A stretch of DNA of 64,000 bases from Clostridia bacterium (lineage in GTDB: Bacteria; Bacillota; Clostridia; TANB77; CAG-508), in NCBI GenBank assembly GCA_900768805.1, contig CAAGEF010000115.1, forward strand, positions 11,407-75,406. The letters run 5' to 3'. The position numbers and the translations under genes are program-made. Within the stretch, counting starts at the first letter, position 1; every line of letters starts with the position of its first letter. Below, in pieces: positions 1,317-25,408 of this stretch. The notes beneath the pieces are model-generated. The model did not search any database, had not been told where the DNA came from, and was given only the letters and a program-made list of their open reading frames with translations.

Positions 1317-1368
1317 TTTATTTTCCTCTTCTATTAGTGCAAAATAAAAAAGAATTTCTCTTTTTTAT

Positions 1369-1782: not shown

Positions 1783-1796
1783 TTTTTGTACCTCCC

Positions 1797-2540: not shown

Positions 2541-2573
2541 CTTTGTCCTTTCTTAATTTTTATTTTTGATTTA

Positions 2574-2932: not shown

Positions 2933-3649
2933 TTAGTGAGTGAATTTAGCAGCAACATAAGTATAACCACCATATGAGCTAAATGATGTTCCACTAACAG
3001 TTAAACCAGGTTGACCAGCATCACCATTGTAACCATACACTTTCATTATTGTATTATGCAATCTACTATATATAGCCATTGCTGGTTTTTCATTAACAAG
3101 TGCCCACATACATATAACGTCTGGAACAAAACCGAGTTCTATTGTTCCTCCTGTTGTACCTATTGAATATTTTCCACCATCATTAAGACCATTACCGTAT
3201 CCAGCATTATAGCCGTTATTATAACCTGTCTGATAGTTTACTGAGTTTCCATTAGCTCTGTTATCGGCATCTGTAACGCCCTTACTATAACCTGCATTAT
3301 AACCAGAATTATATCCGGCACTGTTACCAGCACTATAGCCAGAATTATATCCATCGGTATGTCCACTATTATAATTAACAACAGCAGTATCTTTAATATT
3401 ACTAATAATTGTATTCCAATCGGCATCGGAGGCTGTTGTGACTCCTATACTAGAGACTGCCGCAGCCGATCTACTTTTCACGTCAGCTCCATATGTTTTT
3501 AAATCGTTAATTTGAGTAGTTAATGTCGTACCATCAGAAAACATAACATCATCAGAAGATGTCTCATAAGATACTGGTATCCATGAATCTGTTGCAGCGT
3601 CATAATGATAATCTATTCTATGTTCAACTTCAGTTGAAATACTTGCCAT
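2933..3649 (-). CDS. Gly/Asn/Tyr-rich structural (fibre-like) protein
   Basis: 238 aa with degenerate repeats GYNSGYSAGNSAGYNSGYNAGYS typical of fibre shaft regions. Confidence 0.35.
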   Translation of the reverse strand: MASISTEVEHRIDYHYDAATDSWIPVSYETSSDDVMFSDGTTLTTQINDLKTYGADVKSRSAAAVSSIGVTTASDADWNTIISNIKDTAVVNYNSGHTDGYNSGYSAGNSAGYNSGYNAGYSKGVTDADNRANGNSVNYQTGYNNGYNAGYGNGLNDGGKYSIGTTGGTIELGFVPDVICMWALVNEKPAMAIYSRLHNTIMKVYGYNGDAGQPGLTVSGTSFSSYGGYTYVAAKFTH

Positions 3650-3667
3650 TCTCTAATCATCCTTTCT

Positions 3668-3688
3668 TTTTATTTTGATTAGTTTATA
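3668..3688. repeat. recurrent intergenic motif copy (TTTTGATTAGTTTA variant)
   Basis: Member of the TTTTAATT(A)TGATTAGTTTA family; lies upstream of gene 2933..3649. Confidence 0.4.
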
Positions 3689-3703
3689 TTTATCCTTTAT
3701 TTT

Positions 3704-4042
3704 TTATTTTTTCTTTAGCCATATTTTTCCGTCTACTAATTCAGTAGGTTCATCTCCAAATTCTATCCTTAACATTGTATCTGTTTTATTTAAAAGATAA
3801 GTTTGTAGTTTACTTATTCTTGATACTAAACAATTAAACAAATCAGCATTTATTGGTGTAAATTTTTCATTATCTGCTAAATTTGCGGTCGCAGCAGTAG
3901 CATCATCATTAACAATAGTACTATAATTTTCTCGCCATTCTTTGTTATCTAAATTAGAATCTTGTATAAATAATAATGGGTCAATACTAGTAGGATATTT
4001 AGATTCTTTATTATTCTTTAAATAATTATATATTTCTGCCAT
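3704..4042 (-). CDS. hypothetical protein (112 aa)
   Basis: Intact ORF. Confidence 0.3.
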   Translation of the reverse strand: MAEIYNYLKNNKESKYPTSIDPLLFIQDSNLDNKEWRENYSTIVNDDATAATANLADNEKFTPINADLFNCLVSRISKLQTYLLNKTDTMLRIEFGDEPTELVDGKIWLKKK

Positions 4043-4481: not shown

Positions 4482-7400
4482 TTAATTTATTTCATTTGCA
4501 CCCCAAGGTGAACCAGTAGCTGAGCCATTATAATATATATGTGAAACATTATTAAAAGCATTACTTCCTATACTTGTTACACTATCTGGTATTTCAATTG
4601 AATCTAAATTAGACATATCTGCAAAACTTGATTCACCAATAGTAATAACAGTATTTGGAATATTAATAGTTGTATAGCCACTCTTATAAAAAGCATAATC
4701 ACATATTTCTATAACTGTATCAGGAATCGTATAAGTTCCTTCTTCAACTTTATTAGCATTGTATATTAATTGTGTTTTATCTTTTGAAAATAATACATTA
4801 TTTTCAACATAATAATAAGGATTATCTTCTGAAATAATTAATGTGGTTAGTTTTGGACAATTAATTAAAAAGCCACCTTTAAGATTAGACACAGAATTTG
4901 GAATATTTAAAGTTGTAAATTTAGCATTTGTAAATGTGTCATTACATATTATAGTTACTGTATCTGGAATAGAATAAGTTTCATTTACTTTATTTGCCGG
5001 ATATTTTATGAGAACAGTTTGATTTTTAGTCATAAATACTCCATCAACAGAACAATAAGAAGCATTTGAAGGATTTACATTTATTTCTTCCAAATTAATA
5101 CAGCCAATAAATGCATTTTCATTTATAGAAGTCATACTTGCAGGTATAGATATGCTCTTAACTGATGTGCAAGACAAACCTAAAGAAGCAACAGATATTA
5201 TTCCTTCTTCAAAAATAAGACTTGTTATATTATTTCGGTCAATAAATGTATTGGAATCAATTCTATTAATTGCATAATTAAAATATGAATTAAACACATA
5301 TGGAATTGTAATCTCTCCTCCATTATTATAATTATTATAACCAATAGCCCTTTTAAGCCTTTTTGCATTAAGATTAATAATTATATTATCATTTTCATCT
5401 ATAGACGCAAATTCTTTAGCACCATATAAAGTACTTAAATTATTTTTACATGCAAGTATACTAGTTTTATAAAACGCATTATTTCCAATACTAGTTGCTG
5501 AAATAGGAATAACAGCAGTTGGTAAAGAAATTGCATATTCTGTATCTAAGCTATTATAAAAAGCACAAGAATTAATAGTTTCTACACCTTCTTCTATCAT
5601 AGCATATAATATAAAACCATCAGAAAAAGCATAATTATCAATAGTTTTAACATTACTAGGTATATATATATAGTCTAAACTGTGACATCCTGAAAAAGCA
5701 TATTCACCAATATAAGTTAAAGTTTTTGGAAATTTAGGACAAGAAATAGAGCTATTATAAAAAGCATGATTACTAATCTTTACAAGATTAGTAGGCAAAT
5801 TAATATTCCTTATAGAAGCAGCAGCACCAAAACAATAAGGACTAATTTCTTTTAAAGAATTACTTAAACGCACATCTTTAAGTCTATAACAGTATTGAAA
5901 AGCATAAGAACCAATTTCTTCAACACTATCTGTCATATATACAGAGGTTAAATTTTCACATTCATAAAATGCATAATCTTGAATTTTTTTAACAGTATCA
6001 GGAATAGATACATAGGTAATATCTAAATTTCTATTAAAAGTAAGTCCTATTTTAGTAATAGTAAATTCAATATTCTTATAAGTAAAAGTAGAAGGAATAT
6101 TCACTTTACCTTGTGTTGGTATATTTGTCCATGCTAAAATATTAGAAGTTAAAGTAATGTTTGGCTCAGATACAACCTGAGTGCTAGAATTAAATGCGTT
6201 TTTTCCTATATTTGCATTTCCTTTATATAGCACTAATAATATTGAACTAGAGTAAAATGCTAATGATTCTATTGTTTCAACGCTTGAAGGTATTTTTATA
6301 ATCTCAGCTTTACATGAACTAAAAGCAGAATTTCCAATATATTGTAAACCTTCGTTTAAAGTTAATTCTGTTATATTAATATTGTTAAAAGCATACGCAC
6401 CAATTTTTTTAACACTTCCTGGAATTTCTATTTTAGTTAATCGACTACAACTAAAGAAAGCGTGATCACCTATTTCTTGAAGTGCTCTATTAAATTTAAA
6501 ATCAGTTAATGAGCATTGATTAAAAGCATAATCTCCAATATATTTTAAATTAATAGAAAAAGATATATGTTTTAAATTATAACAATCATAAAAAGTTTTC
6601 TTTTCAATTCTTGTTACATTATTAGATAAAATAACAGACTCTAGATTTTTGCATTGTGAAAAAGCAGAAGCACCAACTTTTGTGATTGTATCAGGCATTG
6701 TAACACTAATTAATTCTGTATTATTTGCAAAAGCACTTTCTGCAATAGAAGTAATTTTATATTCTACTCCTTTATACAAAAATTTCTCAGGAATAACTAA
6801 ATTTCCAGATAAAGATTCAATACCTGTCATAGTATAATTACTAGCTGATAATTCAAAATCTACTAATTCACTTTCATCATTACTTTGATAAAGTGGATAA
6901 AAAGTATACATTTCAATAGTAGATATATGATTCTCATGATCATGTGAAATGTTATGAGTTATGTATTGCTTGATCTCATTAGTATTAGCTTTTTTATATG
7001 ATATTTTCATATATTCATTTAACCATGGAATAATACTTGTCTTAATCGTAATACTATCCGTAATTCTACAATTTTTCCATAATTCATAAGCTGCGGTTTC
7101 AACAGCAGTAGAATCAGATTGAATTTCTGCATATTTATCATCAGCATAAGTCTTATTACGTTCTCCTATTTTCTGTACAACATAAGGAGAGTCTTTGATA
7201 ATTTCAATCTTTATATTATTACAGTTATATTTATATTTAAAATAATCTTTTGAATATTTATCAACTGTAACTTGTCTACCATCTACTATAGTAGTATAAC
7301 CATTCTTTATTGTTTCACCATTAGACAAAACAGCAAGTCCATGCACTTGATATTGACCTAATAAATAGAACTTTTCTGTAACAGCTTTATCAATATAACA

Positions 7401-11137: not shown

Positions 11138-14100
11138 CTATATTTTATTAAAGTATTGATACTTACCAACTTTCAAGTTATTACTTAATTTAGTAAGCTC
11201 TTTTTGAATGTATTCAACACCTGAATCATTCGTCACATTTGGTAAATTAAGACTTACATTCATAACAATAGATGAATTATTGTTATTAATAGTAGTCTTT
11301 GTAGCATTTACACCTTTTCCAAATTCCATGTGATCCATTAAGAAGTTAGGATTAAGTTTTCCCCATTCCCACAAATTCTCACTCATCTCATTCGTAAATA
11401 CCGTATCACCTGCATTGAGTGGAGTAAATACTGCATTTCTGGTAGGTGAAGCAATGATTTCAGCACCTTTTTCTTGTGTCCATGACCATTCATCATTTTC
11501 AACTCTTTTATCACCTTTAGCACGTTGTTTTACACTAAAAGTCTTACTGTTAACAGAGACACCAGGAGCAGTTACTTTAGTAGAATTTAATCTTTCTATA
11601 GATTCTCTTAGTTCATCTACTGCTTTAGTAGAATCTTTTACAGAAGATGTTACATTGTCAAACATTTGAGATACTGCCGGAACAGTAGTAGAAGCAGTAG
11701 CCTTAGTTGCAGTTAAAGCAGTAGTAAGAGATTCACCTTCCGCTTTTGAATCCTTACCACCATTAATAGCTTTAGATGCGTCATAAGTAGATTCTTTAAC
11801 GACACCCATATCAGCACTGATAGAAGTAGCAGTATTATAAGAAGCATCAGTAACTTCACTCATACCACCAACAATAGTTTCAGTAGTATCAGTAGAAGAA
11901 TCCTTTACATCTTGTAAACCGTCGTTTACACCACCAATTGAATCAACTGCACCAGTCAAATCAATAGAAGCTATACTATCAAGCCCAACACCAGTCTTTG
12001 CCAAATAATCGTCAAGCCATTGTATATCACTAACGTTTGCCATAGTAGATAAAGCTTGTCTTACTGAATCAGTTTCCCCTTTAACTGACATCATGTAATT
12101 CAAATATTTATCTTTAAATTCAGCAAAAGTCTTATCTGACATATTAAGAACGTCTTGAGCAGTATATCCTAATTTGTTGAAGACATCTTCCATGTCTTGC
12201 ATCATTTTTGCATTAGTATCTAACTCACTCAATTCTTCCCAACGAGATTTGGTTTCTTCAATAGATTCAATCATCTTTTCGAAATACTCATCAGATTTAT
12301 CCATTAATTCCTGAATAGAATCTTTCTGTTTTTCGATAAGATCGATCTGTTCTTGGATAGCTTCTTTTTGCTTTTCGTAAGCATCAATTTGGTCTTGGAT
12401 AGCCTCTTTCTGCTTTTCAAAAAGTTCTATTTGGTCTTGAAGTTCTTCCTTTTGTTTTTCAAAAAGATCAATTTGTGCTTGAAGTGCATCTTTACCTTCA
12501 TTAAGCAAATCTATCTCTTTTTGAATTGCTGCTACATTAATGTCATTCTGAGCATCACGGACGTTTTCACGAGCAGTAGAAACTTCATCCTCATTGTTTG
12601 TATAAGTCCATTGACCACCTGAAAATGTAGACGTAGTGTTATTGTTAAGAGCCTTATCTAATTCAGACTGAGCTTTTTGTAATGCTATCTGTTTATCACG
12701 TTCATCATTTTCGTCCTGCATTTGGTCAATGATTTTTTGCTTCTCATCAATCAACCTATCATAGTTGTCGATTTCATTCTCGATAGCTTTTATCTGGTCA
12801 TCAATAGCGTCAGTTTGGTCTTCAATTAGCTCAATCTGGTCATCAATAGCGTCAGCCTGGTCTTCGAGGTCATCAATCAAATCGTCAATTGAGTCTATTT
12901 GGTCATTCAAGCCATCTATCTGTTTATCTAAAGCTTTAATTTGTGCATTATAAGATTTGTCAGCAGCATCTTTTAGCTTATTATACTTAGCAATCTGCTT
13001 ATCAATTAAATAAGTAGCACCCTTTATAGCATTATCAAGAGCGTCTTTTGCAATCTCATTTAATTCTTTTTGAGCTTCAGCAGCTTCTTTAGTATATTTT
13101 CCATACTTACCAACTGTCTCGCCTGTGAATCCATAACCTTTAGCTAATCTCTTTAACTGAGAATAATAATCCTTTATAGAAATTTTGCCATCATTATATA
13201 AATCCTCAATTGCGTCATGTTCAGCCTGATAAGCATTTGCCCAATCACCGTGTAAAGTCTTTTCAGCATCAGAAATTTCTTCTTCATACTTTTTGATATG
13301 CTCCGGTGAATCTTTTAAATACTCATTCATGAGAGCTTCTGACTTATTATAAAATTCACGCTCATTAATAAGCTCTTTATCAAGTTCATCTTGGAGAGCA
13401 GAAAGTTTATTTTTATATGCCTCTAACCACTTGTCCTCTTCTTTAGATTTTGAACCAGAACCAGAAGACTTAGGGGTAGAAGGAGCTTTATATTCAACAT
13501 TAGCAATTTCAGTTGTTAAAGTTTTAGCATATTCATTAATTGACTTTATAATCCACTGTCTAGTTTTAGGGTCAGTTTCATTTTCAAGGTCAGTTTTAAA
13601 TTTTTCTAATTTAGCAAGTGCTTCAGTTGCTACACCAGCAGAAGAAGCTAAAGTTAACAATTGGTTTATATCAGAAGAATTATCTATTCTTGCATTATTT
13701 ACCAAAAATTTTCTCATTTCTAAAATTGCTAAAGCTTGTTCTAAATTATCAGCAGACACAGCTTCATTTGCAAAAGCTGTTAATTCCTCTTCTGTCGCAT
13801 TAGCTAAATCAATACCTGCTTCTTCAAGTGCATTAGTATTATTAACAAGTTCACTAAATACAACAATTTCACTATTTGTAACGCCTATACTTTCAAGTAA
13901 TGAATTTACTAATTCAGCATTTTCTTTAGAACATTGTGCAAGACCTGGATTTAAAGCACTGACTACAGAATCTACTAAAGAATTAAAAGCACTTTGAACT
14001 TCTTCTGCACTAGAAGTAGAATCTGATAATACACTAACAAGATCTTCGAAAGAAGAATAGTCAATAGAAATATTTAAATCTGCATTTGAATTTAATGAAT

Positions 14101-16234
14101 CTATAGCAGACTTAATTTCACTAAACATGCTTAAATCAACATTATCTAAAGTAAAACCATCATCAGTAAAAATATTTTGATAAGCGTCTTTTATAGAATC
14201 AAATGCTGGTGATAATTGATTGTCAAGTTGGTCTACAAGGTCAGAAATAGAACGCTTTGACTTAGATGTATTTATACCTTTTATTTCTTCTTGAGCTTTT
14301 TCTACATTATTTAAAGCTGCTTGATAATTATTAGCCGATAAAGTAGCACCATTCAGTTTCTCTTTTTCATTTTGAAGTGCTTGTATAAACTCAGGTGAAT
14401 TTGCAAGTTTTTGTTGTTCTTCATTAAGTTTATCAAACCATTCTGATATCGATTTAATATCAACTTCGGTTATAGCGTCTTCAAAAGTATCTTCAAGATT
14501 ACCACTTATATCTTGTTTGTTAGGAATAAGTTTATTAAACCATTCTGAATTAGCTTTTCTATTAACTTCTGCCATAGAAGTATTAAAGGCGGCATCAAAA
14601 TTATCACTTAATTCTTGCTTATTTGGAGTAAGTTTATCTATCCATTCTGATTTAGTTTTTCTCCCAACTTCTGTTATGGAATCTTCAAAAATAGATTCAA
14701 AATCAGCAGTTAACTCTTGATTACTTGGAGCAAATTTATCAAGAAAATCTATTTTGATTTGTGGATTTATTATACCTAATTTAGTAAGATTATCAATAAG
14801 TTGTTCTATTGACATATTATACTTATTAGCATAAAAATCTAAATCTTCATAAGCCTTCTTTTGTTCATCAGTAGCGGTTTCAGTATCAAAGTTCTTTACA
14901 AAATTCTTTAAGCTTTCATCGCTATTAAATTCTTTAAGCTCGTTAAGGTCATTAGTAATGTCATTCTTCATATCATCTGTGTTAGCTGTAAAATCAATTT
15001 CAAATTCATTAGAATTAACTTCTGCAACTAAATCTTTATTCAAATTTTTGAAGAAATCTACTATACCAGTATCATCACCAGCTTCTTTTATAGCGTCATT
15101 AATTATAGATACATATTCATCTGCTGCATGTTTTGCTTCATCAGAATCAAGTCCATTTTTTTCTACCATTTCATTGTATTCTGTATAAGCGTCAAGAGCT
15201 TCTTTATAATAATCATCAAAAACATTATCTTCTGTTGGTTTTAAAATTTTTTCTTTTAAAACATATGCTTCATAAATTTCTTGATAATTTTCTAATTTTT
15301 CTTGTGTGGTATCAATAGAGTTAGATAATAAATCAAAGAAATTTCCAGTTTCATAATTCTTAGATATTTTTTGTATTTCTAATAATTTATCATATACTTC
15401 TTGAAGATTACCAGTGAGCATCATATCTCTGTCACCAGTTAATTCCACACCAAATTTATTTTGCAATAACTTGTCGAATTCTTCATTCCCGGAAATAGCA
15501 AATGTTACTTTATATTCGCCTTTTTCCATTTGTTCAAGCATCTTATCAAAATTAGAACCAGAAATACTTCTAAGACTATCTGTCCAACCTTCAGATTTAT
15601 TGAACTCATTAATCATAGACTGATATTGAGCATCAGTTAATTTATTAAGTTCTTCTGTTTGTCCTCTAACTGCATCAGTAATAGCATTGATAGCACCTTT
15701 CTCATCGCCATATTTATCAATTAACTCATCTTGAATTGTCATTAATTGTTTACGAGCTTGAGTTACTTCTTCATAAGAAGAAGAGGAGTCATGGATTGTC
15801 AACTGTAATTCGTCAAGTTTTGCTTTGTAAGACTCTATATCATTTTGAGATTCTTTAAAAGCAGAACCAACTTCAGAAGCTTTTTCAGCCAATCTATCAG
15901 AATAAGTAGCAATTTGTTGTATACCATCAACTATTGCACTAAATAAGAACATAGCACCGATATTTAATGCTGTGTTTAATGCTAAAGCAAGACCTTTCCA
16001 TGCTACTTGTTGAGCTTTACCTGCAAGAGTAGCAGTCTTCATTGCTTTTGTTAAATTTTCTTCCCCAATTACTGCACCATTTACAGCTTTCATTAAAGCA
16101 ATTGTTTCTTTTGTAGTTCCTTTACTTGCTTTATCTAGAGCTTCTTGTGCCGAAATTTTCTTTTTTATATATTCATTATATTTATGAATTGCATCTGAAT
16201 CAATATCAGATTTTTCAAAGAAAAATTCTTTAAA
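11138..16234 (-). CDS. tape measure protein, exon 3 (C-terminal ~1700 aa; exact 5' end within 16094-16234 undetermined)
   Basis: Track ORF 11138..16093 (MKAVNG...). Its frame stays open a further 47 codons upstream (FKEFFFEKSDIDSDAIHKYNEYIKKKISAQEALDKASKGTTKETIAL) with no ATG/GTG/TTG and no RBS, which points to exon continuation. Contains the hydrophobic TMP segment KGLALALNTALNIGAMFLFSAIV and long coiled-coil repeats (LIDDLEDQADAIDDQIELIEDQTDAIDDQIKAIE). Confidence 0.55.
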   Translation of the reverse strand, partial: FKEFFFEKSDIDSDAIHKYNEYIKKKISAQEALDKASKGTTKETIALMKAVNGAVIGEENLTKAMKTATLAGKAQQVAWKGLALALNTALNIGAMFLFSAIVDGIQQIATYSDRLAEKASEVGSAFKESQNDIESYKAKLDELQLTIHDSSSSYEEVTQARKQLMTIQDELIDKYGDEKGAINAITDAVRGQTEELNKLTDAQYQSMINEFNKSEGWTDSLRSISGSNFDKMLEQMEKGEYKVTFAISGNEEFDKLLQNKFGVELTGDRDMMLTGNLQEVYDKLLEIQKISKNYETGNFFDLLSNSIDTTQEKLENYQEIYEAYVLKEKILKPTEDNVFDDYYKEALDAYTEYNEMVEKNGLDSDEAKHAADEYVSIINDAIKEAGDDTGIVDFFKNLNKDLVAEVNSNEFEIDFTANTDDMKNDITNDLNELKEFNSDESLKNFVKNFDTETATDEQKKAYEDLDFYANKYNMSIEQLIDNLTKLGIINPQIKIDFLDKFAPSNQELTADFESIFEDSITEVGRKTKSEWIDKLTPNKQELSDNFDAAFNTSMAEVNRKANSEWFNKLIPNKQDISGNLEDTFEDAITEVDIKSISEWFDKLNEEQQKLANSPEFIQALQNEKEKLNGATLSANNYQAALNNVEKAQEEIKGINTSKSKRSISDLVDQLDNQLSPAFDSIKDAYQNIFTDDGFTLDNVDLSMFSEIKSAIDSLNSNADLNISIDYSSFEDLVSVLSDSTSSAEEVQSAFNSLVDSVVSALNPGLAQCSKENAELVNSLLESIGVTNSEIVVFSELVNNTNALEEAGIDLANATEEELTAFANEAVSADNLEQALAILEMRKFLVNNARIDNSSDINQLLTLASSAGVATEALAKLEKFKTDLENETDPKTRQWIIKSINEYAKTLTTEIANVEYKAPSTPKSSGSGSKSKEEDKWLEAYKNKLSALQDELDKELINEREFYNKSEALMNEYLKDSPEHIKKYEEEISDAEKTLHGDWANAYQAEHDAIEDLYNDGKISIKDYYSQLKRLAKGYGFTGETVGKYGKYTKEAAEAQKELNEIAKDALDNAIKGATYLIDKQIAKYNKLKDAADKSYNAQIKALDKQIDGLNDQIDSIDDLIDDLEDQADAIDDQIELIEDQTDAIDDQIKAIENEIDNYDRLIDEKQKIIDQMQDENDERDKQIALQKAQSELDKALNNNTTSTFSGGQWTYTNNEDEVSTARENVRDAQNDINVAAIQKEIDLLNEGKDALQAQIDLFEKQKEELQDQIELFEKQKEAIQDQIDAYEKQKEAIQEQIDLIEKQKDSIQELMDKSDEYFEKMIESIEETKSRWEELSELDTNAKMMQDMEDVFNKLGYTAQDVLNMSDKTFAEFKDKYLNYMMSVKGETDSVRQALSTMANVSDIQWLDDYLAKTGVGLDSIASIDLTGAVDSIGGVNDGLQDVKDSSTDTTETIVGGMSEVTDASYNTATSISADMGVVKESTYDASKAINGGKDSKAEGESLTTALTATKATASTTVPAVSQMFDNVTSSVKDSTKAVDELRESIERLNSTKVTAPGVSVNSKTFSVKQRAKGDKRVENDEWSWTQEKGAEIIASPTRNAVFTPLNAGDTVFTNEMSENLWEWGKLNPNFLMDHMEFGKGVNATKTTINNNNSSIVMNVSLNLPNVTNDSGVEYIQKELTKLSNNLKVGKYQYFNKI

Positions 16235-16355
16235 ATTAAAATTTTTTAAATCTTTAAATTCATTTTTAATTTCATCTATAGACTTTCCAAATAATCCAAT
16301 AGACTCAATCGCTCCTGTAGATTCATTTGTAATTGTTTGGAATATCGAACTTTAT

Positions 16356-16384
16356 TTGACATATACTTTGTGGAATAGTATATT
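16356..16384 (+). promoter_or_regulatory. sigma-A-type promoter for zinc-ribbon gene (TTGACA-N17-TATATT)
   Basis: TTGACA at 16356-61, 17-nt spacer, TATATT at 16379-84. RBS AAGGAGAG at 16404-11, ATG at 16420. Confidence 0.6.
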
Positions 16385-16419
16385 ATGTTAATAAAGAATC
16401 TATAAGGAGAGAATAAATA

Positions 16420-16764
16420 ATGTTAATTAATAGAGATGTTTATGAATGTAATAAATGTAAAAAATCATATTTTTTTGATACTGATAAACCTTATTCTAAA
16501 ATATGTCCTGAATGTGGAGAAGAATTAACCTTTGAATTAAATTACGATTATGATACTGAAAAAGAGCCACCATCAGTATACGACCCAACAGAAGATCCCA
16601 ATAGCCCATATTATATTCCAAAAGTAGAATGTCCATATTGTCATTCTACAAAAACAGAAAAGATAGGAGTTATAAAACGTTCTTTTTCATTTGGATTACT
16701 TGGCTTTGGAAGTAGTAAGGTGGGTAAAAATTACCATTGTAAAGTATGTGGTTCTGATTTCTAA
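16420..16764 (+). CDS. double zinc-ribbon protein (114 aa), function unknown
   Basis: Four CxxC pairs (C10/C13...C29/C32; C71/C74...C107/C110). Strong promoter and RBS. Encoded antisense to the TMP gene inside the intron-like insertion. Confidence 0.55.
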   Translation: MLINRDVYECNKCKKSYFFDTDKPYSKICPECGEELTFELNYDYDTEKEPPSVYDPTEDPNSPYYIPKVECPYCHSTKTEKIGVIKRSFSFGLLGFGSSKVGKNYHCKVCGSDF

Positions 16765-16936
16765 TATTAAATTCTATATTAGTTTTAAGTTTTATTGACA
16801 ATAAAACCAATATCCAGTAACATTATATTGTGCTACCTAAAGTGGTAGGCGGTTAGTCCTTTTGCGTAGAATTATCTACAGAACAATCACGAAAGGGGTT
16901 GTTTGAATGATTACACAAGAAAGGATAGTTTGAATA

Positions 16937-17029
16937 ATGTACATAACATTAGATCAGATAATCCAAATAGGAATTTTCCTAGTTGGATTTGCTACTCTGA
17001 TAATACTAATTGTAAAAGATACAAAATAA
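16937..17029 (+). CDS. type I toxin-like small hydrophobic peptide 1 (30 aa), bsrE/bsrG/Hol-Tox-like
   Basis: MYITLDQIIQIGIFLVGFATLIILIVKDTK: single TM helix with a Lys-rich tail. Own promoter TTGACA(16795)-N17-TAACAT. Structured 5'UTR motif GTGCTACCTAAAGTGGTAGGCGGTTAGTCC at 16830-59. Terminator directly after the stop. Confidence 0.5.
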   Translation: MYITLDQIIQIGIFLVGFATLIILIVKDTK

Positions 17030-17067
17030 AAACACCGCCAACTGCCCAAGGTTCCGGTGTTTTTATT
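17030..17067. terminator. bidirectional rho-independent terminator (module 1)
   Basis: AACACCG...CGGUGUU stem followed by a U-run on the plus strand and an A/U-rich 5' flank. Read on the minus strand the same hairpin is followed by a U-run, so it can serve both toxin mRNA and antisense RNA. Confidence 0.55.
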
Positions 17068-17119
17068 AAAAACTCATAAACTAAGGACTAACCGCTTGCT
17101 TAACGGTAGCACTTTTTAT
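17030..17119 (-). ncRNA. antisense sRNA 1 (putative type I antitoxin), convergent to toxin 1
   Basis: Perfect minus-strand promoter TTGACG(17154-49)-N17-TATAAT(17131-26). Predicted ~90-nt transcript covers the reverse complement of motif B (17085-17112) and ends at the shared terminator. Confidence 0.45.
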
Positions 17120-17125
17120 GACTTT

Positions 17126-17154
17126 ATTATAATCTAAATAATATAAAACGTCAA
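17126..17154 (-). promoter_or_regulatory. antisense promoter 1 (TTGACG-N17-TATAAT)
   Basis: Reverse complement of plus-strand 17126-31 attata and 17149-54 cgtcaa, with a 17-nt spacer. Confidence 0.55.
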
Positions 17155-17290
17155 TATATTATTATTTTTTCTTCGCTGGACTTATGTACCATAATTTGTT
17201 AATATTATATAGTGCTATCTAAAGCGGTAGGCGGTTAACCCTCACTCAGAGGGATTATTGTCTGTCCCTCTATGAAAAGGAGGGATGAAT

Positions 17291-17380
17291 ATGGTTACAT
17301 ATGATAACTTGATACAATTTTGTATTCTAATCGTAGCAATCATTAGTCTCGTTTACGAGATTTTTCGCAATAAAAAATAA
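17291..17380 (+). CDS. type I toxin-like small hydrophobic peptide 2 (29 aa)
   Basis: MVTYDNLIQFCILIVAIISLVYEIFRNKK. Promoter TGGACT(17177)-N17-TAATAT. 5'UTR motif GTGCTATCTAAAGCGGTAGGCGGTTAACCC. SD GGAGGG is flanked by two CCCTC anti-SD copies (CCCTCactcaGAGGG...CCCTCtatgaaaaGGAGGGatg). Confidence 0.5.
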   Translation: MVTYDNLIQFCILIVAIISLVYEIFRNKK

Positions 17381-17467
17381 TCGCCCACAGTCTGACAAAC
17401 TAAGCGATTATTTTTAATCAAAAAGTTATAAGGGCTAACCACTTGCTATATGGATAGCACTTTTTAT
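17377..17467 (-). ncRNA. antisense sRNA 2 (putative antitoxin)
   Basis: Promoter TTGACG(17502-497)-N17-TATAAT(17479-74) on the minus strand. Terminator stem AATCGC...GCGATT plus T-run at 17377-17416. Overlaps motif B2 (17432-60). Confidence 0.45.
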
Positions 17468-17473
17468 AAGTCT

Positions 17474-17502
17474 ATTATATTCTTTCTATCACAAATCGTC
17501 AA
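17474..17502 (-). promoter_or_regulatory. antisense promoter 2 (TTGACG-N17-TATAAT)
   Basis: Perfect consensus hexamers with a 17-nt spacer. Confidence 0.55.
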
Positions 17503-17675
17503 TATCATTTTAATTCCAACTGGACATATTTTACATAACTTGTTATTATTATACCATGAGGTTATGCTACACAACGGTAGACGGTTGCTTTCGCTAGAAT
17601 ATATTTTATTATTCTAAGAACTTCCATTTTGAAAGGAGGTTTTAGCATGGAAAATATACTAAGGAGAAAGCTTTT

Positions 17676-17756
17676 ATGTATGTGACATGGACTGATTTGA
17701 TTCAGTTCTGCATATTAATAGTTGCAATAATTGCGCTATTTAGACATAAAAAATAA
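17676..17756 (+). CDS. type I toxin-like small hydrophobic peptide 3 (26 aa)
   Basis: MYVTWTDLIQFCILIVAIIALFRHKK. Promoter TGGACA(17521)-N17-TATTAT. RBS AAGGAG. Preceded by a 12-codon overlapping leader ORF (17647-17685, MENILRRKLLCM) that may couple translation. Confidence 0.5.
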   Translation: MYVTWTDLIQFCILIVAIIALFRHKK

Positions 17757-17834
17757 CCGCCCTCTGTCTAGCAAACTTGGCGGTTATTTTTAACGTAACT
17801 GTCAACTAGGCAACCGTTTATCGGTATAACCTCT
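17750..17834 (-). ncRNA. antisense sRNA 3 (putative antitoxin)
   Basis: Promoter TTGACG(17869-64)-N17-TATAAT(17846-41). Terminator ATAACCGCC...GGCGGTTAT plus T-run at 17749-17792. Motif B3 at 17808-32. Confidence 0.45.
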
Positions 17835-17840
17835 ATTCAC

Positions 17841-17869
17841 ATTATATTACATTTAAAAAATTACGTCAA
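17841..17869 (-). promoter_or_regulatory. antisense promoter 3 (TTGACG-N17-TATAAT)
   Basis: Perfect consensus hexamers with a 17-nt spacer. Confidence 0.55.
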
Positions 17870-18300
17870 CATTTATTATTGATTCTGCCATAATTTATTA
17901 TTATTCAAAAATGAATAAAATTTCTATTTTGTTCCTATCTTCCACACCATGAAAATACGATAGGAGAGTATTTATATTTTACTGTCATGTCAGTTTTAAT
18001 GCATTAAAAGTATACAAATATATGTATAACTATTAGAGCAGTATCATAACTCATTACAAATTATGACTTACTTCTAACTTATAGTCAGTTAATGCTCCGA
18101 CTCGTTTCGAGCGCATCTTAGAGAAGCATCGTTTCATATAACTTCTCCCCAGGGTTGTCGCTTCTGTGAGGGCTTTTCATTAATATTATTTTATTAATGA
18201 ACTATCCCTGCGGATTGTTTCCTTTCCCGCATATTGCCTGTGTACGTTTAACTTATTGTATTTCAATAAGCGTGATATAAAAAACTTATACATAAACTTA

Positions 18301-19143
18301 TATGTATAATAAGGTCTTATCACCGACGGCATATTCTTTTGAGAAGAGGACGTATTTACCTCGTCTACCGTCACCTTTTAAACTCTTAAAGATTCCAAAT
18401 ATTCCACTACCACCAATTAGAGCAGTATTTAATACACCTATATTATTAACAACATCTAAAATACTTTTAGCAAAATCAATAAAGAAATTAATAATTTCAC
18501 GATTATCATTTCCAACCCATAATTGTTCCCATGCATTTTTTAAAGAATTTATATGTGCTTCAATTGTTTCCAATTGCTTTTCTAATTCTTCTTGTGCTGA
18601 ACCTTCTGAATCTAATGCTGATTCATACACTGATTTTAACAATTCAGGTTGTTGAAGAATAGCTGCTGCAACGTTTGAACGATTTTTACCTGCTAAAACT
18701 TCTAGAAGTGCTTGTCCACGATTCGTTCCAGCTTTTTTATCAGTTTCTAATATTTCTTGATATACTTCGCTAATACTTCTTAATATTTCATAAGTTGATT
18801 TATAATTACCATTATCATTTAAAATACTTACACCTTTAAAATCATTAGACTCAACAGCAGTAAAATTACGAACTGTTTGATCAAGTTTGGATTTAGTTTG
18901 TACTACAAAATCATCAACATCTTCACCTAAACTTGCTAACTCATCTTTTGCTTCTTCTGTGCCAAGAATACGAAGAGAAATCATTTTTAATCCTGTACCC
19001 ACAGATTCAGCGTCTTGTAAAACTGAATTTCCTGCTGTTACAAGTGCCGCAGCTTCATAAATATTATTACCAGCTACTTTTAAAGTTGCAGCCGATCTTT
19101 GTAAAGCACTTGCTAATTCATCGGTCGAAATTGCATAATTATT
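18301..19143 (-). CDS. tape measure protein, exon 2 (TMP core region)
   Basis: Begins at the 3' splice site with NNYAISTDELASALQRSAATLKVAGNNIYEAAALVTAGNSVLQD...GTGLKMISLRILG, matching the TP901/TIGR01760-type TMP core, then the first hydrophobic segment. The track ORF's first 60 codons are intron read-through. 3' limit (5'SS of intron 2) approximate. Confidence 0.55.
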
Positions 19144-20920
19144 CAATCTGTTACTTTCAGTCTTTTGACTTACTGACCTATTAAATAGGCGATATGTCAT
19201 TTCTGGCATATTCTCACATTTCATAAAAAGATTATATTGTGAGTTCAGACTGTATATTACAACCTCTTGTCTTCTAATTAAATAGAAGAGTAGGTTGGAT
19301 AACTTCACTATATATGTTACCATATAAAGCCCGCAGTCGTTACGGATAATGTAATATTATTATTTTGGATGGGGATTATCCTACTTTCTTTTTTATTAAA
19401 TGTCTATATTCACTAATTTCCATATCTTGATATGGAATTAATAATTCTTTACCTAAAAATAAACTACCTTCTTTATAATTCCAATTAAAAGAATGATAGT
19501 TTTCTAAAAAACCATTATTTTTAATATATTTTAATATTAAAGCTTCACATAAATCAGGAAATTCATTTATATCTTTTTCCCATAAATATATTAATATTTT
19601 CATGTGTTAAAATATAAGTCTTTTTTTGCTTATCTTTAGTTATTGTTCTACTTTGTAATTCATTTATAGAATGTTTATTTTCATTATATTTTAATGGAGA
19701 ACTATGCTAATAATCACCCATTACTTCTATAATCAGATTGAATTTTGGCGAATAATTATCAACAGCGTAATATTTTATTATGTATTCTCGTTCAAATTTT
19801 ATATTATTTTTATTTAATATATCATTTACTTTTAATTGTATGCCAGTTTCTAATCTATTTGCTTTTCTAGAATTTTTTAGAATATTTATTCTAGCTTTTT
19901 CTTTTTGTTCTTCCGTAAATATGTAATTATGCATTATAGATTTTTCACCTACATAATATTTACTGCGATATTTCCAATAACATTCTTGACTGCAAAAATT
20001 ATGACTATCTCCATATGTATTTTTCTTATTATAATCATATGGTATTATTTTTATATTTTTCCACAATTAGTACATGTTGTCTCTATACGATTATAAAATT
20101 GACTATTTTCACCATGTCCTATTTTATTGGTTTTATCATTCCAATAACATTCTAAACTACAATATAAATATTTATGTATTTTATATACATTAGGTGGATT
20201 TATTACTTCTTTTCCACAATGTTCACATTTTGTCTTTACTAAGCACTTCTTATTACCAATTTTCAAAGTACAAAATAAATTTACAGTATCTTCTAATGAA
20301 CGATTTATTTTATTAGCTAAATTATTAATATAAATTGATTCCTCATATAATAAAAAATATAATGTTATTAAGATTTCACTTTCCGAAAAACCTTCTACTT
20401 TTGGTATACCATTGTGGCGTTTTATCCATTCACATACATTACATTTAGTTATATCTCCATTTTTATATACTTTTTTATAATACATATGCATTTTTGGAAC
20501 TTTGTGTCCACAAGTTTTACAATATAATAAACCTCTATAATTTTCAAATTCTTCTTTTGTCATAATAACATCTCCTGAAATTTATAATTATCTTGTTTTT
20601 TGTCTCATATAAAAATAAAAATCCAATGCTTCATGCAATTCATTGGATTCTTCAAATAACCAATATTCATTTGTGTTTTCTAAAATACTTTCTCTTTCAA
20701 AACCAAGAGAATATAAATATTTAGACAATCTTTTATTTTTTATTTTATATTTATTGTTCATACTAATATTTCCCCATATTTAGTATTAATAATTATATAA
20801 TATTACATTCTTTCCTCGGTTTTACCCATCTCTGGCTTTTAACCGATATAGTTATCTACTAGGATATTAATAATGATTAAAAATATCCCCATACATTACT
20901 GTATGTTTAGGCATAATTTT
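19144..20920 (-). other. group I intron 1 in tape measure gene (1777 nt)
   Basis: Exon 1 ends GAAGUAGGU and the intron begins AAAAUUAU-GCCUA. This gives P1 UAGGU/GCCUA with a U.G pair at the splice site, and P10 AUUAU with exon-2 AUAAUU. Then P2 CAUACA-GUAA-UGUAUG, P2.1 GGAUAUU...AAUAUCC, P4-P5 UCGGUU-AAAAG-CCA-GAGA-UGG-GUAA-AACCGA. ORFs sit in the P6 region. R-like ACGACUGCG and S-like AAUAUACAGUCU give P7 GACUG/CAGUC. P8 CUUCUA...UAGAAG, P9 CUCACA...UGUGAG, P9.1 CCUAUUUAAUAGG. Omega G at 19144. Confidence 0.65.
19376..20563 (-). pseudogene. intron-encoded DUF559/Vsr-like (PD-(D/E)xK) homing-endonuclease gene, fragmented into three ORFs
   Basis: 170-aa Cys-rich N-terminal ORF (20051..20563). 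A 119-aa ORF (19707..20066) ends ...GIQLKVNDILNKNNIKFEREYIIKYYAVDNYSPKFNLIIEVMGDY then TAG. It continues in frame HSSPLKYNENKHS..., then after a frameshift the 75-aa ORF (19376..19603) begins KILIYLWEKDINEFPDLCEALILKYI. Together these match the DUF559 motifs (VDF...IEVDG..H ... VLRFWE.dv). A frameshift also separates the 170- and 119-aa ORFs. Confidence 0.5.
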
Positions 20921-23900
20921 ACCTACTTCATTTAAAACGTCATTAATTTGCGATTTTTCTAAATCGTTATAAGCAGAACTCATTGCAACTAAAGCATCAG
21001 TAGCTTCATTTATACTTTCAAATTCAGATACTTGAAATAAAGTATTTGCATCTTGTGCTGATTTTTTAGCATCGTTTAATGATTCTCCAAGTCGCATAAA
21101 ATCAGCCGTACTACTTTGTATTGTACTAGCAGTAGTTCCTACACTATTTGCTAATTCAAAGCTTTCTTTTTGAAAATTTTTCAAAGTTTGAATACTATAT
21201 TCACTTACTTTATTCATTTCAGCAAGATTATTGTCATATTCTTTAATAATTTCAAAAACTTCTCGGCCATATCTTATTATATCATACATACTAAGATACA
21301 TAGATATAAAACTAGTAGTAATACTTTTAGTCCTTTTAGCTATAGAAGTAAAGAAAGAATCACCAGTTTTACCGGATTTTTGAAGCTGATAATTAAGATC
21401 AGCAAGTTCTTCATTTAATTCTCTAAATTGCTTTTCTGTACCTTTAGTATCAATTAACAATTGATATTTTTTTTCTAATGCATAAAATAATTGTTTTAAA
21501 CTAGAAGGCATAGCAGTATTGTCAGCAAGAGTCTTACGAATCTTTGACATTGTATCTCTAATTTCTTCTGGTTTTGCTAACTGGAATGCAAAATTCTTAG
21601 TTTGTGAATTGACTTCATTATATAATTTATCAATTTCTTGTTCTAATTTTTTTACATAATTTAGTTTTGTTTCATCAATATTTATTAAATCATAACTTTG
21701 CAATTCTTTGATTTTTGATTCTAATAAATCCATTTTTTCATAATATGCGTCAACATATTTGAAATCTTTTTTATTAGTGTAAAGTCTTTCATATTTTTTA
21801 TACATATTATTTGCATAATTTTTTACAGATTGCTCATAAGCTTTAGATTCACCATTTTGGAAAACTTGTCTTATACTTTCTAACTCTGCTTTAATATTAG
21901 AATTACCTAAATTTACAGTAGCATATTTTCCCTTCGCCAAATAAGCTTCTTCCCATTCCTTTTCAAGCTGTTCAAGCAAAATTTTTTCTTGAGGAATTAA
22001 AGAATCTTCATTACTTTTTAATATATAATAATCTTTTGACTGTTTAAGAAGTGTTTTATAAGCTTTTATAGCATCTTGGTTATGCTCAGTAGCAGTTAAA
22101 TCTTTATAAGAGCCAAGATTCATCTGTACTTCTTCTTGTTTAGCAGTATATTCTTTTTGTGTTTGTAATTGTTTTTCAGTTAAAACAGTAGTAGTTTTTA
22201 AAACTTGATTATATTTTTCTCTATTATTAATAAGTTCTTGAAGATTTTTTGTCTCTTGAGGTGTTAACGAGGTGAATTGAGATTTTGCCTGTAATTCTTG
22301 ATAAGACTTTTCAGTTTTTATTAAACCTTTATAAGCTTCAGAAATTTCATCAATTTTCTTTGTAGAATTATTAGTAGAAATTTCAGCGTTTCTCTTAGAA
22401 TCATTTTTGCTTGCTATAATATTGTCAATTTTTTCTTGATACTTATTTTTTATAGCAAATAACTCATTACTTTGCTTTTGTCTATCAATAATATCCTGAT
22501 AAACTTCCAATTCTTTTTTAGAAGCATTATAATTATTAATATGCTGTTTTTCTTGAGCTTTTAAAGTTGCAATTTCTTCTGAATTTTTTTGAGGATCTAA
22601 TTTTGAAATAGCAAGTTTTATTTGACAAATCTTTTCATATTCTTCTTTTTGCTTTTTTAGAAGATTAGTAGAAATTTCAGCGTTTTCTTTTTGTTTCCTT
22701 TTAGCATTTTCAGCATAAGCTTCTTGTTCAGCAAGTTTAATACTTTCTTTTAAAGAAGCATTATAAGCTTCTCTTCTAGCTTCATATTCAGCAATTAACC
22801 GTAGTTCATATTCTTGATTTCGATTATCATTAACTAATCCTTTTTCATTACGATATTCTTTTTCATCGCTAATTAACTCTTCATAGGAAGCAATCAACAT
22901 GTTATTATATGCTATATCTTCTTTTTGAGTTTTAGAATTAGTTTCTTTAGCTTTAGCATTTTTTTCTTTTAAAGAATAAATTTCTGAGATATATTTTTTT
23001 TCAATATTATAAGATTCTTTAGTTAATTTATCTTTTTCTCTTTTTTCTTCATTAGCAAAACGTTTGGCCTGTTCAGAACGTTCCTTTGCCATTTTTTTCT
23101 CAATATCTTCATAGCGAGTGGAATCTATATGACTTGAGAAAGAAGTATTATTTTTTAAATCATAATTAGTAGTCCAAGTAGTATTTTTTAATAAACCATC
23201 TAATTCCTGTTGTTCTTTTAAAACAGTTTTTACTAAATTATCTTGACTATCATAAAATTCCGTTATTTCTTTTATTGTAGACCCTTGTGCAGTTAAGTCA
23301 GATTCTAATTGTGCTGTTGCTTTTTCTAAAGATTCTGTTCTAGCAATAAGTTGAGCAGTAGTCATACTATTATCTGCTTTTGTAACATTACGAGTTTTAT
23401 GCTTTATTGCTTCTTTAGGGTCATCACTAATATTAGTAGCTGCTTCAGCAATTTTTCCACGATTTATTTCAACATTAGGTACTTTGATTTTATTATTTAA
23501 ATCTATTCCAGAAAATTTTGCGATATTATCTAATTGTTCTTTAATTATTTTTAAAGCAGAAATCAATTTACCAAGATAATGTGTTTCATTAGGAATAATT
23601 TTAGTAACATTAGCTTCTTCATTCTTAAATGCTTCTGTTTTTTCATTGACAGCATTAGTTATAGAGTCAACAGACTGTTTTATGGCTTCAAGTCCCTTAA
23701 CTTCATTACCTGTATCAGTAGTTTTACCATTTAGGACTTCATCAACTGTTAATCCTTTTTCAATAAAAGAAGAAATTTCTTTAAGCTGATTTATGACTTC
23801 TGTTAAATCTGTTTTACCAAACAAATCTTTTAATGGATCAGAATTAGAAGCAGTTTTTAATTCATTAAAGGCTTTTGTAACTTGTCCCATTGCTGCGGAA

Positions 23901-25408
23901 GCAGAAGTCCAATATTTTTTATCAATACTATTATATAAGACATCTTTTCCGTTATATTGAAGTTTAGCTTCTTTTCGCATATTTTCAATAAACTTTTGAT
24001 ATGCCTTTAATTTACCCATCATAGTATCATATTGATTAATATCAAAATCAAAAAAGTTTGTATTAATCATAGAACCGCCAGCACCTGAAAGTTTTAATTC
24101 ATCAAACAATTTTTGATATGCTTGTAATGCTAAAGAAATTTTAGATTGTATTTTTGCTTCAATTTCTTTATTCGAACCAACTTCAATATTCATATTTAAA
24201 TTAATACCTTTAAGACTATTACTTAAATCTGAAATAGCAGTATTAATTTTATCAATCGTATTTATAATTGGAGTAAGAGAATCATTAGTATTTCCGACTT
24301 CCACAAAAGCAGTTCGTATTTTTATAATTTCTTCGTGTAAATCTTTAAGAATTACTATAAGTGCATTAAGTTCTTTACCATTTTCACCGTTAGCAGTAGG
24401 AGTATAAGTATGGATAGCTTTTTGTAATTGTTCCTGAACAAATTCAATTTGATCAGTATATTTATGATAATCTTGAATACTATCTTTCATCCATTGTGTA
24501 TAGGATTCTTTATTATTACCTTTAGCTATTTCATTCTGATAATAAGTAGCACCCCATAATGCATCTTTCTGGTTTTGTTTTAATTCATCTAAGGCCTTAG
24601 AATATTTTTGAATATCTTCTAACTCATCATCCAAATCAATTTGCCAATCATAAACTTCACCTTTATTATGTTCTGCTTTTAACTTAGCTTCCATTTCTGC
24701 TTCAGTTAAAGTTTTAAATTGCTCAGTGACTTCTTCTACTGCTTTCGCTTGAGCATCATAAGCTCCGGTAGTAGAAGTAATAGAAGTAGTAAAAGTATTT
24801 TGAATATCTATTAAACTAGTTAATGTTTCTACGGTACTTTCCAATCCTTTAAAAGGTTTCGTTATTTCTGAGAGGTCAGGATATAATTTTTGTATATTCT
24901 TTAGTACATCAAAGATTTCTTTAAATTGACTAACATCTAAATTATAATTTTTAAAATTTGGTAATTCTCTCATTTGAGATACTAAGTCACTTATTTCTTG
25001 ACTTATTTCTGATATAGAGTTACTCTTACCAGTTAATGCTTCTAACGCATTTGCAAAAATTAAAACTTTTTTTGCAGATTTAGAATCTGCCAAATTATTA
25101 TCATTAATAATTCCAGCATTTCTTTCTTTAGCATATTGTTCCCATGCATTTTTTAATCTGTTAACTGCTTTTTCTTCAGTGGTAAAATATGAAGTCTTAG
25201 AATAATTTTTGTTTTTATTTATACATTTTTCATAAGATTCTAAAGCCTCTGTTAATCCTTCAATATCTTCTTTAGCCTTATAAATAGAAGAATCAGTTTT
25301 TATTTTTAATGTGGTTTCTGACATTGATTCAGAACCTTTTAATACTTCTCCAATTGCTTGAGCAATCTCTTTAGCAGTAGCACCACTTGTATTTATTCGT
25401 TCAGCCAT
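20921..25408 (-). CDS. tape measure protein, exon 1 (N-terminal ~1496 aa)
   Basis: Follows the chaperone-like genes. Long coiled-coil-rich protein. Its last residues ...INEATDALVAMSSAYNDLEKSQINDVLNEVG are the start of the TMP core motif, which continues exactly in exon 2 (NNYAIS...). The 9 codons after GGU (KIMPKHTVMYGDIFNHY*) are intron sequence. Confidence 0.65.

Follow-up and report, generated by a model that had tools for sequence, protein, structure and literature searches.

Results

We report that a 2021-nucleotide (nt) interruption of the tape-measure protein (TMP) gene of a phage is probably a cis-spliced group I intron. It occupies 18366..16346 on the minus strand of a 64,000-nt stretch of Clostridia bacterium contig CAAGEF010000115.1 (assembly GCA_900768805.1, positions 11,407 to 75,406), hereafter the window, in whose positions all window coordinates are given. 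An earlier sequence-only reading had placed a second TMP intron here, with its core at the 5' end, an antisense cargo of 1.7 kb and a distant 3' splice site; this central proposal is now supported by an empty site in relatives, by covariation and by a covariance model of the core (R1, described below). Directly observed are the anatomy of the element, its covarying pairs, the empty site and the variation of the cargo among relatives.

The TMP reading frame breaks after a hydrophobic segment

An open reading frame (ORF) survey of the window places all long ORFs on the minus strand. Outside the cargo of the intron the plus strand holds only small ORFs and one shadow ORF within the TMP gene. The TMP frame itself lies in three pieces, with the Pfam PhageMin_Tail domain divided between the first two:

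25408..20867, minus strand, first TMP ORF
19323..18298, minus strand, second TMP ORF
16093..11138, minus strand, third TMP ORF

The second ORF stops at 18300..18298 (minus strand), shortly 3' of the hydrophobic segment NIGVLNTALIGGSGIFGIF, confirming that the frame is broken after the first such segment, as had been noticed from the sequence. Upstream of the first ATG of the third piece (16093) its frame is open for a further 86 codons (16351..16094), a stretch that lacks any Shine-Dalgarno motif and any ATG, GTG or TTG in frame. The lack of a start codon and ribosome-binding site had been recognised correctly, while the length had been given as 47 codons. At this base composition the probability of 86 stop-free codons is ~9e-5, and 0 of 20,000 shuffles stayed open.

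The interruption had been placed at 18298..16234. The pairings P1 and P10 together with the terminal G, all described below, give 18366..16346 instead and define the following features:

18367..19143, minus strand, TMP exon 2, 259 codons; start from the empty site of the relative L001, end from P1 and its U·G pair
16346..18366, minus strand, complete intron of 2021 nt, A18366 to G16346; delimited by P10, P1 and the final G, with the in-frame open exon 3 following
11138..16345, minus strand, TMP exon 3, 1735 codons plus stop; frame open from 16351, beginning IFQTITNESTGAIESIGLFGK

Exon 2 contains the PF10145 match and ends with ...FKSLKGDG at T18367 in phase 0; exon 3 begins at A16345, also in phase 0, and its 84 N-terminal codons are conserved with P0027, P0029 and P0035. 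When the three exons are joined, 3489 codons remain free of stops, corresponding to a 3489-aa TMP. The predicted junction of exons 2 and 3 reads ...GGTGACGGT^ATATTCCAA... (the caret marks the splice site here and below), which joins ...SLKGDG to IFQTITNE..., and the predicted tryptic peptide that spans it is GDGIFQTITNESTGAIESIGLFGK. An intein, translational bypass and frameshifting were considered and rejected, as the gap of 2 kb has stops in all frames, promoters, terminators and genes on the opposite strand.

Distant relatives define an empty site

GenBank phages, near and distant, gave no nucleotide match to the window, and the protein search returned distant TMPs only. In IMG/VR we found 21 related loci, most of them on phage contigs of ~90-160 kb, with TMPs ~50% identical. 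The distant relatives L001 and L005/L020 have a TMP ORF that is continuous through both interruptions seen in the window, demonstrating that both gaps are insertions into one gene. A comparison with relatives lacking the insertion had been suggested in the sequence-only reading, and it is this continuous ORF that defines the empty site. At the remaining IMG/VR loci the frame breaks at the window position, directly after the hydrophobic segment, and resumes 2.0-4.8 kb downstream.

The interruption at this TMP site is common to all close relatives. Among the relatives 57-100% identical that were retrieved from 5.8 billion proteins, all terminate just after ...KGDG^R or ...SGGG^R, and the annotated start of their exon-3 proteins is an ATG made up of the final three bases of the insertion. 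Across the intron family this triplet varies between ATG, ACG, TTG and TCG; the final G alone is constant.

The TMP of L001 has in-frame TAG codons at 10307, 10430, 10490, 11036 and 11561. Window glutamines align to those at 10430 and 10490, which suggests that L001 reads TAG as a sense codon.

The proposed intron ends are complementary to both exons

The 5' and 3' ends of the intron were mapped by their complementarity to the flanking exons:

18367..18372, minus strand, 5' strand of P1 in exon 2 (GACGGU); its partner is the internal guide at 18330..18325 (GCCGUC), and U18367·G18330 falls at the splice site
18331..18336, minus strand, P10 guide segment (GAAUAU); 6/6 complementary to the start of exon 3 (AUAUUC, 16345..16340)
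16346..16350, minus strand, intron 3' end (GUUCG); GUU at 16350..16348 is the proposed P9.0 partner of AAC at 18106..18104, and G16346 is the terminal base

P1 pairing reaches 93.8% over 16 introns, and 2/6 of its pairs show changes on both sides; the window pairing is replaced by GAUGGU/GCCAUC in L141 and by GUAGGU/GCCUAC in L144. The U·G pair at the splice site becomes C·A in six of the 16 (L002 type). The GAAUAU segment comprises the six bases 5' of the P1 guide, and its partner AUAUUC is preceded by G16346 and opens the exon-3 frame. P10 is perfect in 8/10 introns and has one mismatch in the other 2/10, and it covaries in L141 (AAAUAU/AUAUUU). The 3' ends of the family read AGUAUG, AGUACG, AGUUUG or AGUUCG, the last base being G in all 10 introns with a mapped 3' end. 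Judged by eye, J7/9 UAC pairs off with a 3'-end GUA and AAC with GUU, a covarying pairing that we take as P9.0. The enclosing P9-like helix of the earlier proposal is thus better described as this short P9.0 together with P10.

The same combination of P1, P10 and terminal G maps the 3' end of nine further introns of 1023-8005 nt, namely L114 (1023 nt), L144 (1082), L141 (1174), L142 (1925), L008 (3455), L002 (4706), L118 (5730), L035 (6200) and L136 (8005). Their predicted junction peptides are alike (KGDG^IFQTI, KNVG^IFKTI, KGDG^IFKNL), with G^IF(K/Q)T conserved. The core is more widespread still: the P8-loop motif TATATGNAACGATGCT is found with the same core in ~70 viral contigs and exists in 26 distinct versions (71 occurrences, among which a few contigs are counted twice). 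The exon context ...AAAAATGTCGG(T/C)^A... lies 5' of the core in 64/71 occurrences, the other seven being without enough readable flank. The window and L141 show the variants GACGGT and GATGGT of this context.

The RNA downstream of exon 2 has group I topology

The RNA directly 3' of exon 2 folds into the following elements:

18083..18366, minus strand, ribozyme core (pair counts, RNAalifold, model R1, partial match to the Rfam model RF00028)
18366..18342, minus strand, P1a hairpin, directly after the 5' splice site
18323..18318 with 18277..18272, minus strand, P2
18271..18264 with 18258..18251, minus strand, P2.1
18240..18237 with 18153..18150, minus strand, P3 (CAGG/CCUG)
18231..18226 with 18214..18209, minus strand, P4 (UGCGGG/UCCGCA), closed by an 11-nt loop, no P5
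18208..18206 with 18172..18170, minus strand, P6, which bears a long P6a
18166..18159 with 18114..18108, minus strand, P7 (C-[A]-G-[A]-AGCG with CGCUCG)
18147..18142 with 18126..18121, minus strand, P8 (GAGAAG/CUUCUC)
18119..18115, minus strand, J8/7 (AAGAU)
18102..18099 with 18086..18083, minus strand, P9
17925..18082, minus strand, P9.x hairpins forming a probable peripheral 3' domain, the last hairpin being UCCUAUC...GAUAGGA

P3 and P7 cross to form the group I pseudoknot. In P7, C18166-[A]-G18164 faces C18109-G18108 with one bulged base, the guanosine-binding feature, and its G-C pair is invariant in 16/16 introns; we take this bulge to be the counterpart of C262/A263/G264 in Tetrahymena. 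The putative peripheral domain is conserved with L148, and its terminal hairpin resembles the CUUAUCU...AGAUAAG hairpin of other family members. A 70-nt stretch of the core (18181..18108) is ~81% identical to L002-type and L008-type loci at the same relative position.

Covariation was analysed in an alignment of 16 distinct introns (A2) from which the P5 region had been removed in every sequence. The core structure is 97.3% paired in this alignment, compared to 80.2% with shuffled columns and 30-49% when the 3' partners are slid by 1-3 columns. Changes on both sides occur at 19/35 core pairs, in P1, P3, P4, P6a, P7 and P8 (P3 4/4, P7 3/6, P8 4/6, P4 2/5). This is further supported by an independent run of RNAalifold, which is blind to pseudoknots and recovered P1, P2a, P2.1, P4, P6, P6a, P7 and P8. 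Model R1, a covariance model that covers P6-P7-P8 and was trained on 15 relatives with the window left out, gives a single match in the window, full length at 18213..18103 (minus strand; 93.6 bits, E = 1e-18); L148, L142 and L147 score 99.3, 85.5 and 70.6 bits. Covariation, RNAalifold and R1 all uphold a structured RNA of group I topology just 3' of exon 2, as had been read from the letters of this sequence.

These data also bear on a reading without any intron, according to which an island of accessory genes separates two independent tail genes and the conserved RNA is a regulatory or processing element. It would explain that the cargo varies as in moron islands, that gene prediction yields two proteins in all close relatives and that Rfam gives no match at its gathering score. 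However, the ORF is continuous in distant relatives, the RNA forms covarying pairings with the edges of both exons (P1, P10) and contains the P3/P7 pseudoknot, and neither the start codon nor the ribosome-binding site of the second 'gene' is conserved. We regard this explanation as very unlikely.

The probable intron carries toxin-like modules and an antisense zinc-ribbon gene

The cargo begins past ~17925, beyond the ribozyme and the probable P9 extensions, and comprises three repeated modules 348-382 nt apart followed by a zinc-ribbon gene. Each module contains a minus-strand promoter, a hairpin with U-runs that folds in both directions and a plus-strand ORF of 26-31 aa. The features of the cargo are:

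17869..17841, 17502..17474 and 17154..17126, minus strand, near-consensus promoters TTGACG-17-TATAAT (11/12 each in a promoter scan)
17800..17738, 17425..17362 and 17078..17022, minus strand, hairpins with U-run (-21.2, -18.0 and -15.8 kcal/mol; z = -4.5, -4.5 and -2.8)
17022..17869, minus strand, the three promoter and hairpin units, in the same sense as TMP (repeat families D1-D3)
16937..17029 (30 aa), 17285..17380 (31 aa) and 17676..17756 (26 aa), plus strand, small hydrophobic ORFs of putative toxins
16356..16384, plus strand, near-consensus zinc-ribbon promoter TTGACA-17-TATATT, its -35 box 10 nt from the 3' splice site
16420..16764, plus strand, 114-aa double zinc-ribbon gene

The antisense cargo announced by the sequence-only reading, with a consensus-like promoter, a double zinc-ribbon ORF and three toxin-like modules, is therefore present. 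Against Pfam PF16935 (Hol_Tox, cut-off 23.3 bits) the second toxin ORF scores 30.2 bits, the third 18.2 and the first 12.3; weak NCBIfam matches to PepG1/ComI were also obtained. The three minus-strand units are presumed to be genes of antitoxin small RNAs (sRNAs). For the zinc-ribbon protein, whose ORF is the only sizeable one of the intron, Pfam and NCBIfam give generic zinc-ribbon matches only, PHROGs and PADLOC returned nothing useful and a PDB profile search nothing significant. Foldseek with its AlphaFold model (pLDDT 73.6) matched generic zinc ribbons and no nuclease fold. A recognisable homing endonuclease was accordingly rejected for this protein, no nuclease domain having been detected in any of these searches.

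An Rfam match to whalefall-1 was obtained at 17238..17288 (minus strand; 20.8 bits, cut-off 37), where a hairpin CCCUC...GAGGG lies opposite the leader of toxin module B. This match is probably due to chance.

Evidence for and against splicing of the window copy

Several observations weigh against splicing of this copy. The two strands of P4 are separated by 11 nt only (AAAGGAAACAA, 18225..18215), and the P5 helix, which is part of the conserved group I core, is absent; in all 21 other aligned family introns, and in L148, the P5 region is 70-90 nt longer. The P4-AA-P5-AA-P4' layout claimed earlier for this intron accordingly does not hold. Three hairpin and U-run elements lie in the sense of TMP between the core and the 3' splice site, and these should terminate many transcripts. 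The intron contains no homing endonuclease gene. A search of 5.8 billion sequences with the predicted spliced junction returned no junction-spanning protein, the uninterrupted relatives being only ~50% identical. Finally, the Rfam group I intron model RF00028 (Intron_gpI) stays below its gathering score of 50 bits in the window, with nothing at E <= 10 when 5.4 kb are searched.

The search with RF00028 had been proposed as a check, and it yielded a weak local match at 18231..18163 (P4-P6 and the R element) with 19.7 bits and E = 0.0068, only when 361 nt were searched. The model performs no better on relatives: none of six loci gave a match at gathering score, and the L144 and L141 cores alone gave none at E<=1. 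A study of Bastillevirinae introns characterises RF00028 as not covering phage introns completely and as liable to give partial hits (PMC11878797). Because relatives supported by covariation are missed too, and in view of that study, we take the miss as a weakness of the model and not as a refutation; RF00028 overlooks this phage intron family. The group I assignment proposed here rests on topology, covariation and exon pairings, not on RF00028 membership.

The main rival explanation is that the copy without P5 no longer splices. The element would then be a decaying relic, inactive after the P5 deletion and the insertions of cargo, and either the genome is defective or TMP is made as two polypeptides with a non-canonical start of exon 3. 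The closest relative that keeps the P5 region is L148 (about 1220..1310), the exon 2 of which is 88% identical to that of the window, and the P5 deletion is therefore recent. Such decay would be consistent with this recent loss, with the terminator-like hairpins in the sense direction and with the two frameshifts that break the probable endonuclease gene of the first TMP intron and indicate that mobile parts of the genome are decaying; moreover, the window stems from an assembly and not from a phage of proven viability. On the other hand, P1, P3, P7, P8, P10 and the terminal G are intact, and the lineage-specific strands of P3 (CAGG/CCUG) and P8 (GAGAAG/CUUCUC) are still complementary. L142, obtained from a different sample and 97.4% identical to the window, has the same intron lacking P5, so that this state exists in two lineages 2.6% apart. 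Between them, exons 1-2 have a ratio of non-synonymous to synonymous substitution rates (dN/dS) of ~0.34, suggesting that TMP has been under selection after the P5 deletion and is still functional, although this is a test of low power. Together with the 3489 joined codons free of stops and the 86 open codons that offer neither ATG, GTG or TTG nor a Shine-Dalgarno motif, this makes the relic explanation unlikely in our judgement.

The hairpins raise another possibility, in which termination within the cargo splits the precursor and the exons are joined otherwise, the halves being united in trans or by a route such as the back-splicing of ND5-717. The three sense terminators are accompanied by three strong sense promoters within the intron, and the one at 17154..17126 could reach exon 3; unusual routes are possible for giant group I introns that bear cargo (PMC6545197). 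In contrast, the 3' part offers only a P9.0 of ~3-4 bp and a P10 of 6 bp, extended complementary arms were not found, and family members of ~1.0-1.2 kb with the same ends fit ordinary cis-splicing. We thus consider a split precursor quite improbable.

Cis-splicing, the reading that we prefer, is an inference, and so are adequate read-through of the three hairpins and continued activity of the P5-less core. TMP is needed in few copies per virion, and we reason that a poor yield of spliced transcripts may be tolerable. Compared with the relatives, the window has a longer P6a (18200..18175) and a longer inner P2 hairpin, which might compensate for the lost P5.

The cargo differs between related introns

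The cargo found in relatives between the same intron ends includes GmrSD_N proteins (three loci), ToxN, PemK/MazF, a pair of MurT and GATase_3, and DUF3800, DUF4145 and DUF3825 proteins, and both orientations occur. In L035 a MurT-like ligase with its GATase_3 partner and a MazF-like toxin are found within the intron at 1795..3758 and 5414..5743, and L008 carries a ToxN toxin at 1242..1835. No classical endonuclease family was found in the annotated cargo of relatives, leaving aside an unassigned 524-aa ORF of L136.

Homologues of the zinc-ribbon gene lie antisense beside the 3' splice site in L141, L035, L136, L144 and L145 and share the C-terminal motif CPYCHS...KIG...FG...K.GKQWHC..CGSDF; in L118 a short antisense homologue lies inside the cargo, not at its edge. 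From 22500 to 17016 L142 and the window share 97.4% identity; beyond this L142 diverges, with another start of exon 3 and, at the 3' edge of its intron, a different antisense zinc-ribbon gene of 156 aa. This marks the 3' part of the intron as a recombination point.

The intron of L144 (7005..5919, minus strand, 1082 nt; GCA_054283005.1, JAZSZY010000043.1) occupies the same TMP site with a different core that gives no R1 match. It keeps the 5' hairpin, the guide, P10, the AGUAUG end and the antisense zinc-ribbon gene. Judging from these sequences, conservation seems to be stronger at the intron ends and in the zinc-ribbon gene than in the intervening ribozyme.

Other interruptions of TMP and other features of the window

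The first interruption of TMP in the window is

20923..19144, minus strand, ~1780 nt, delimited by the empty site of L001

It gives no match to RF00028 or R1. In L142 it contains a single gene of 397 aa with a DUF559-like C-terminus that probably encodes an endonuclease; in the window two frameshifts divide this gene into 20563..20057, 20060..19584 and 19630..19379. A DUF5659 ORF lies at 20761..20588 in the same interruption. Its last ~120 nt (19268..19147) are 80% identical to L005/L020 9871..9997, the 3' end of an insertion elsewhere in TMP (exon-2 residue ~121), and the same intron type thus seems to occupy different sites.

A third interruption, for example L002 8300..10000, is seen at exon-2 residue ~101-111 in L002-L004, L006-L019 and L021, lying ~1.7-2.3 kb upstream of the match to exon 2. 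It contains cysteine-rich ORFs of 347-524 aa with a DUF559-like C-terminus, and the insertion of L005/L020 at residue ~121 has different ORFs. The TMP genes of this clade therefore have at least three insertion sites.

Elsewhere in the window, a cluster of four tRNAs is located at 48649..53760 (minus strand), with an additional weak tRNA-like match at 53262..53340.

Discussion

A model for expression of the interrupted gene

According to the model that we favour, the catalytic core and the peripheral hairpins would fill the first ~440 nt of the intron, and the 3' splice site, ~1.6 kb further on, would be recognised only via P9.0, P10 and the terminal G. The stretch between them would serve as a cargo bay, here presumably holding three Hol_Tox-type modules, similar to type I toxin-antitoxin (TA) systems, and the zinc-ribbon gene, with the cargo protein genes opposing TMP under their own predicted sigma-70-type promoters. 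Late transcription would have to pass through the cargo, and only read-through transcripts could be spliced in cis. Guanosine-initiated splicing would then link ...SLKGDG to IFQTITNE... and yield the 3489-aa TMP. Both the pre-mRNA and the excised intron would be antisense to the mRNAs of the toxins and of the zinc-ribbon protein and would include the antitoxin sequences, and one may speculate that late transcription could in this way silence the cargo.

More tentatively, and with somewhat less than even confidence, we propose that the window intron belongs to a family that occupies one TMP site and has an exchangeable bay of 1-8 kb for accessory genes (type I-III toxin or TA systems, GmrSD-like nucleases, MurT/GatD and others). 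The conserved antisense zinc-ribbon protein at its 3' edge would be a new intron-associated protein, and late transcription of the tail gene would shut the cargo off.

Phage group I introns are usually seen as small selfish elements that bear a homing endonuclease at most. In the present case this ribozyme scaffold appears to keep an essential tail gene intact and to house kilobases of TA and defence-type genes, and the cargo genes are not the same even in phages with 97% identity. Should splicing be confirmed, introns would represent a further safe harbour for phage accessory genes, and the fragmentation of these TMP genes by gene callers would be explained. The family would also provide a natural test of how a 3' splice site is chosen over 1-8 kb, and the window copy would be a natural group I core that functions without a P5 helix.

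Relation to known systems

A limited search of the full-text literature did not bring up any phage group I intron reported to carry TA or defence-type genes instead of a homing endonuclease. The novelty claimed by the sequence-only reading is narrower in other respects, since introns in TMP genes (PMC10448857) and antisense ORFs in introns (PMC3679873) have been published; what appears new within that literature is the TA and defence-type cargo.

Splicing of a TMP intron has been verified in ICP1 (PMC10448857), and introns in tail genes are known from Cluster J mycobacteriophages (PMC3706429), with checks by RNA-seq or reverse transcription PCR. As proposed for the window, self-splicing introns split a TMP or tail gene in these phages, and their contents vary between constant flanks. 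In contrast, the ICP1 TMP intron has HNH homing endonuclease genes and a capsid intron of Cluster J a putative one, and TA or defence genes are reported in neither. No relationship to the window intron by sequence or model was found for the ICP1 and Cluster J introns.

The ND5-717 group I intron of hexacoral mitochondria contains many genes that are not endonucleases, reaches 18-19 kb and is still removed (PMC6545197). It is mitochondrial and vertically inherited, whereas the window cargo, made up of accessory genes, follows the P9 domain. Expression of a protein gene from the antisense strand is known for Dir.S956-2, a group I intron of Didymium nuclear rDNA (PMC3679873); that gene is a homing endonuclease in eukaryotic rDNA, while the antisense genes described here encode a zinc-ribbon protein and putative small toxins within a phage gene.

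The three modules resemble the Hol_Tox (PF16935) type I TA loci of Firmicutes in their small hydrophobic ORFs, the predicted convergent sRNA promoter and the putative shared two-way terminator, here repeated three times. Unlike the usual Hol_Tox loci, which are chromosomal or intergenic in prophages, they lie inside a probable intron of an essential phage gene, and only one of the three ORFs exceeds the Pfam cut-off.

The nrdD (sunY) intron of T4 is ~1 kb long, with its core at the 5' end, an ORF downstream and a remote 3' junction reached via P9.0/P10. Michel and co-workers reportedly described in 1992 (Genes Dev) that this group I catalytic core is activated by the remote 3' splice junction. 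The order of parts in the window resembles that of the T4 intron, with the core first, the ORFs next and a remote 3' junction predicted to be found via a short P9.0 and P10. The two differ in content, as T4 sunY carries one sense-strand I-TevII gene (for the sunY/I-TevII context see PMC3984707), whereas the window intron has no endonuclease and an antisense cargo with its own promoters and terminators, extending to 8 kb in relatives. They also differ in the host gene, which belongs to nucleotide metabolism in T4 sunY and is a tail gene in the window.

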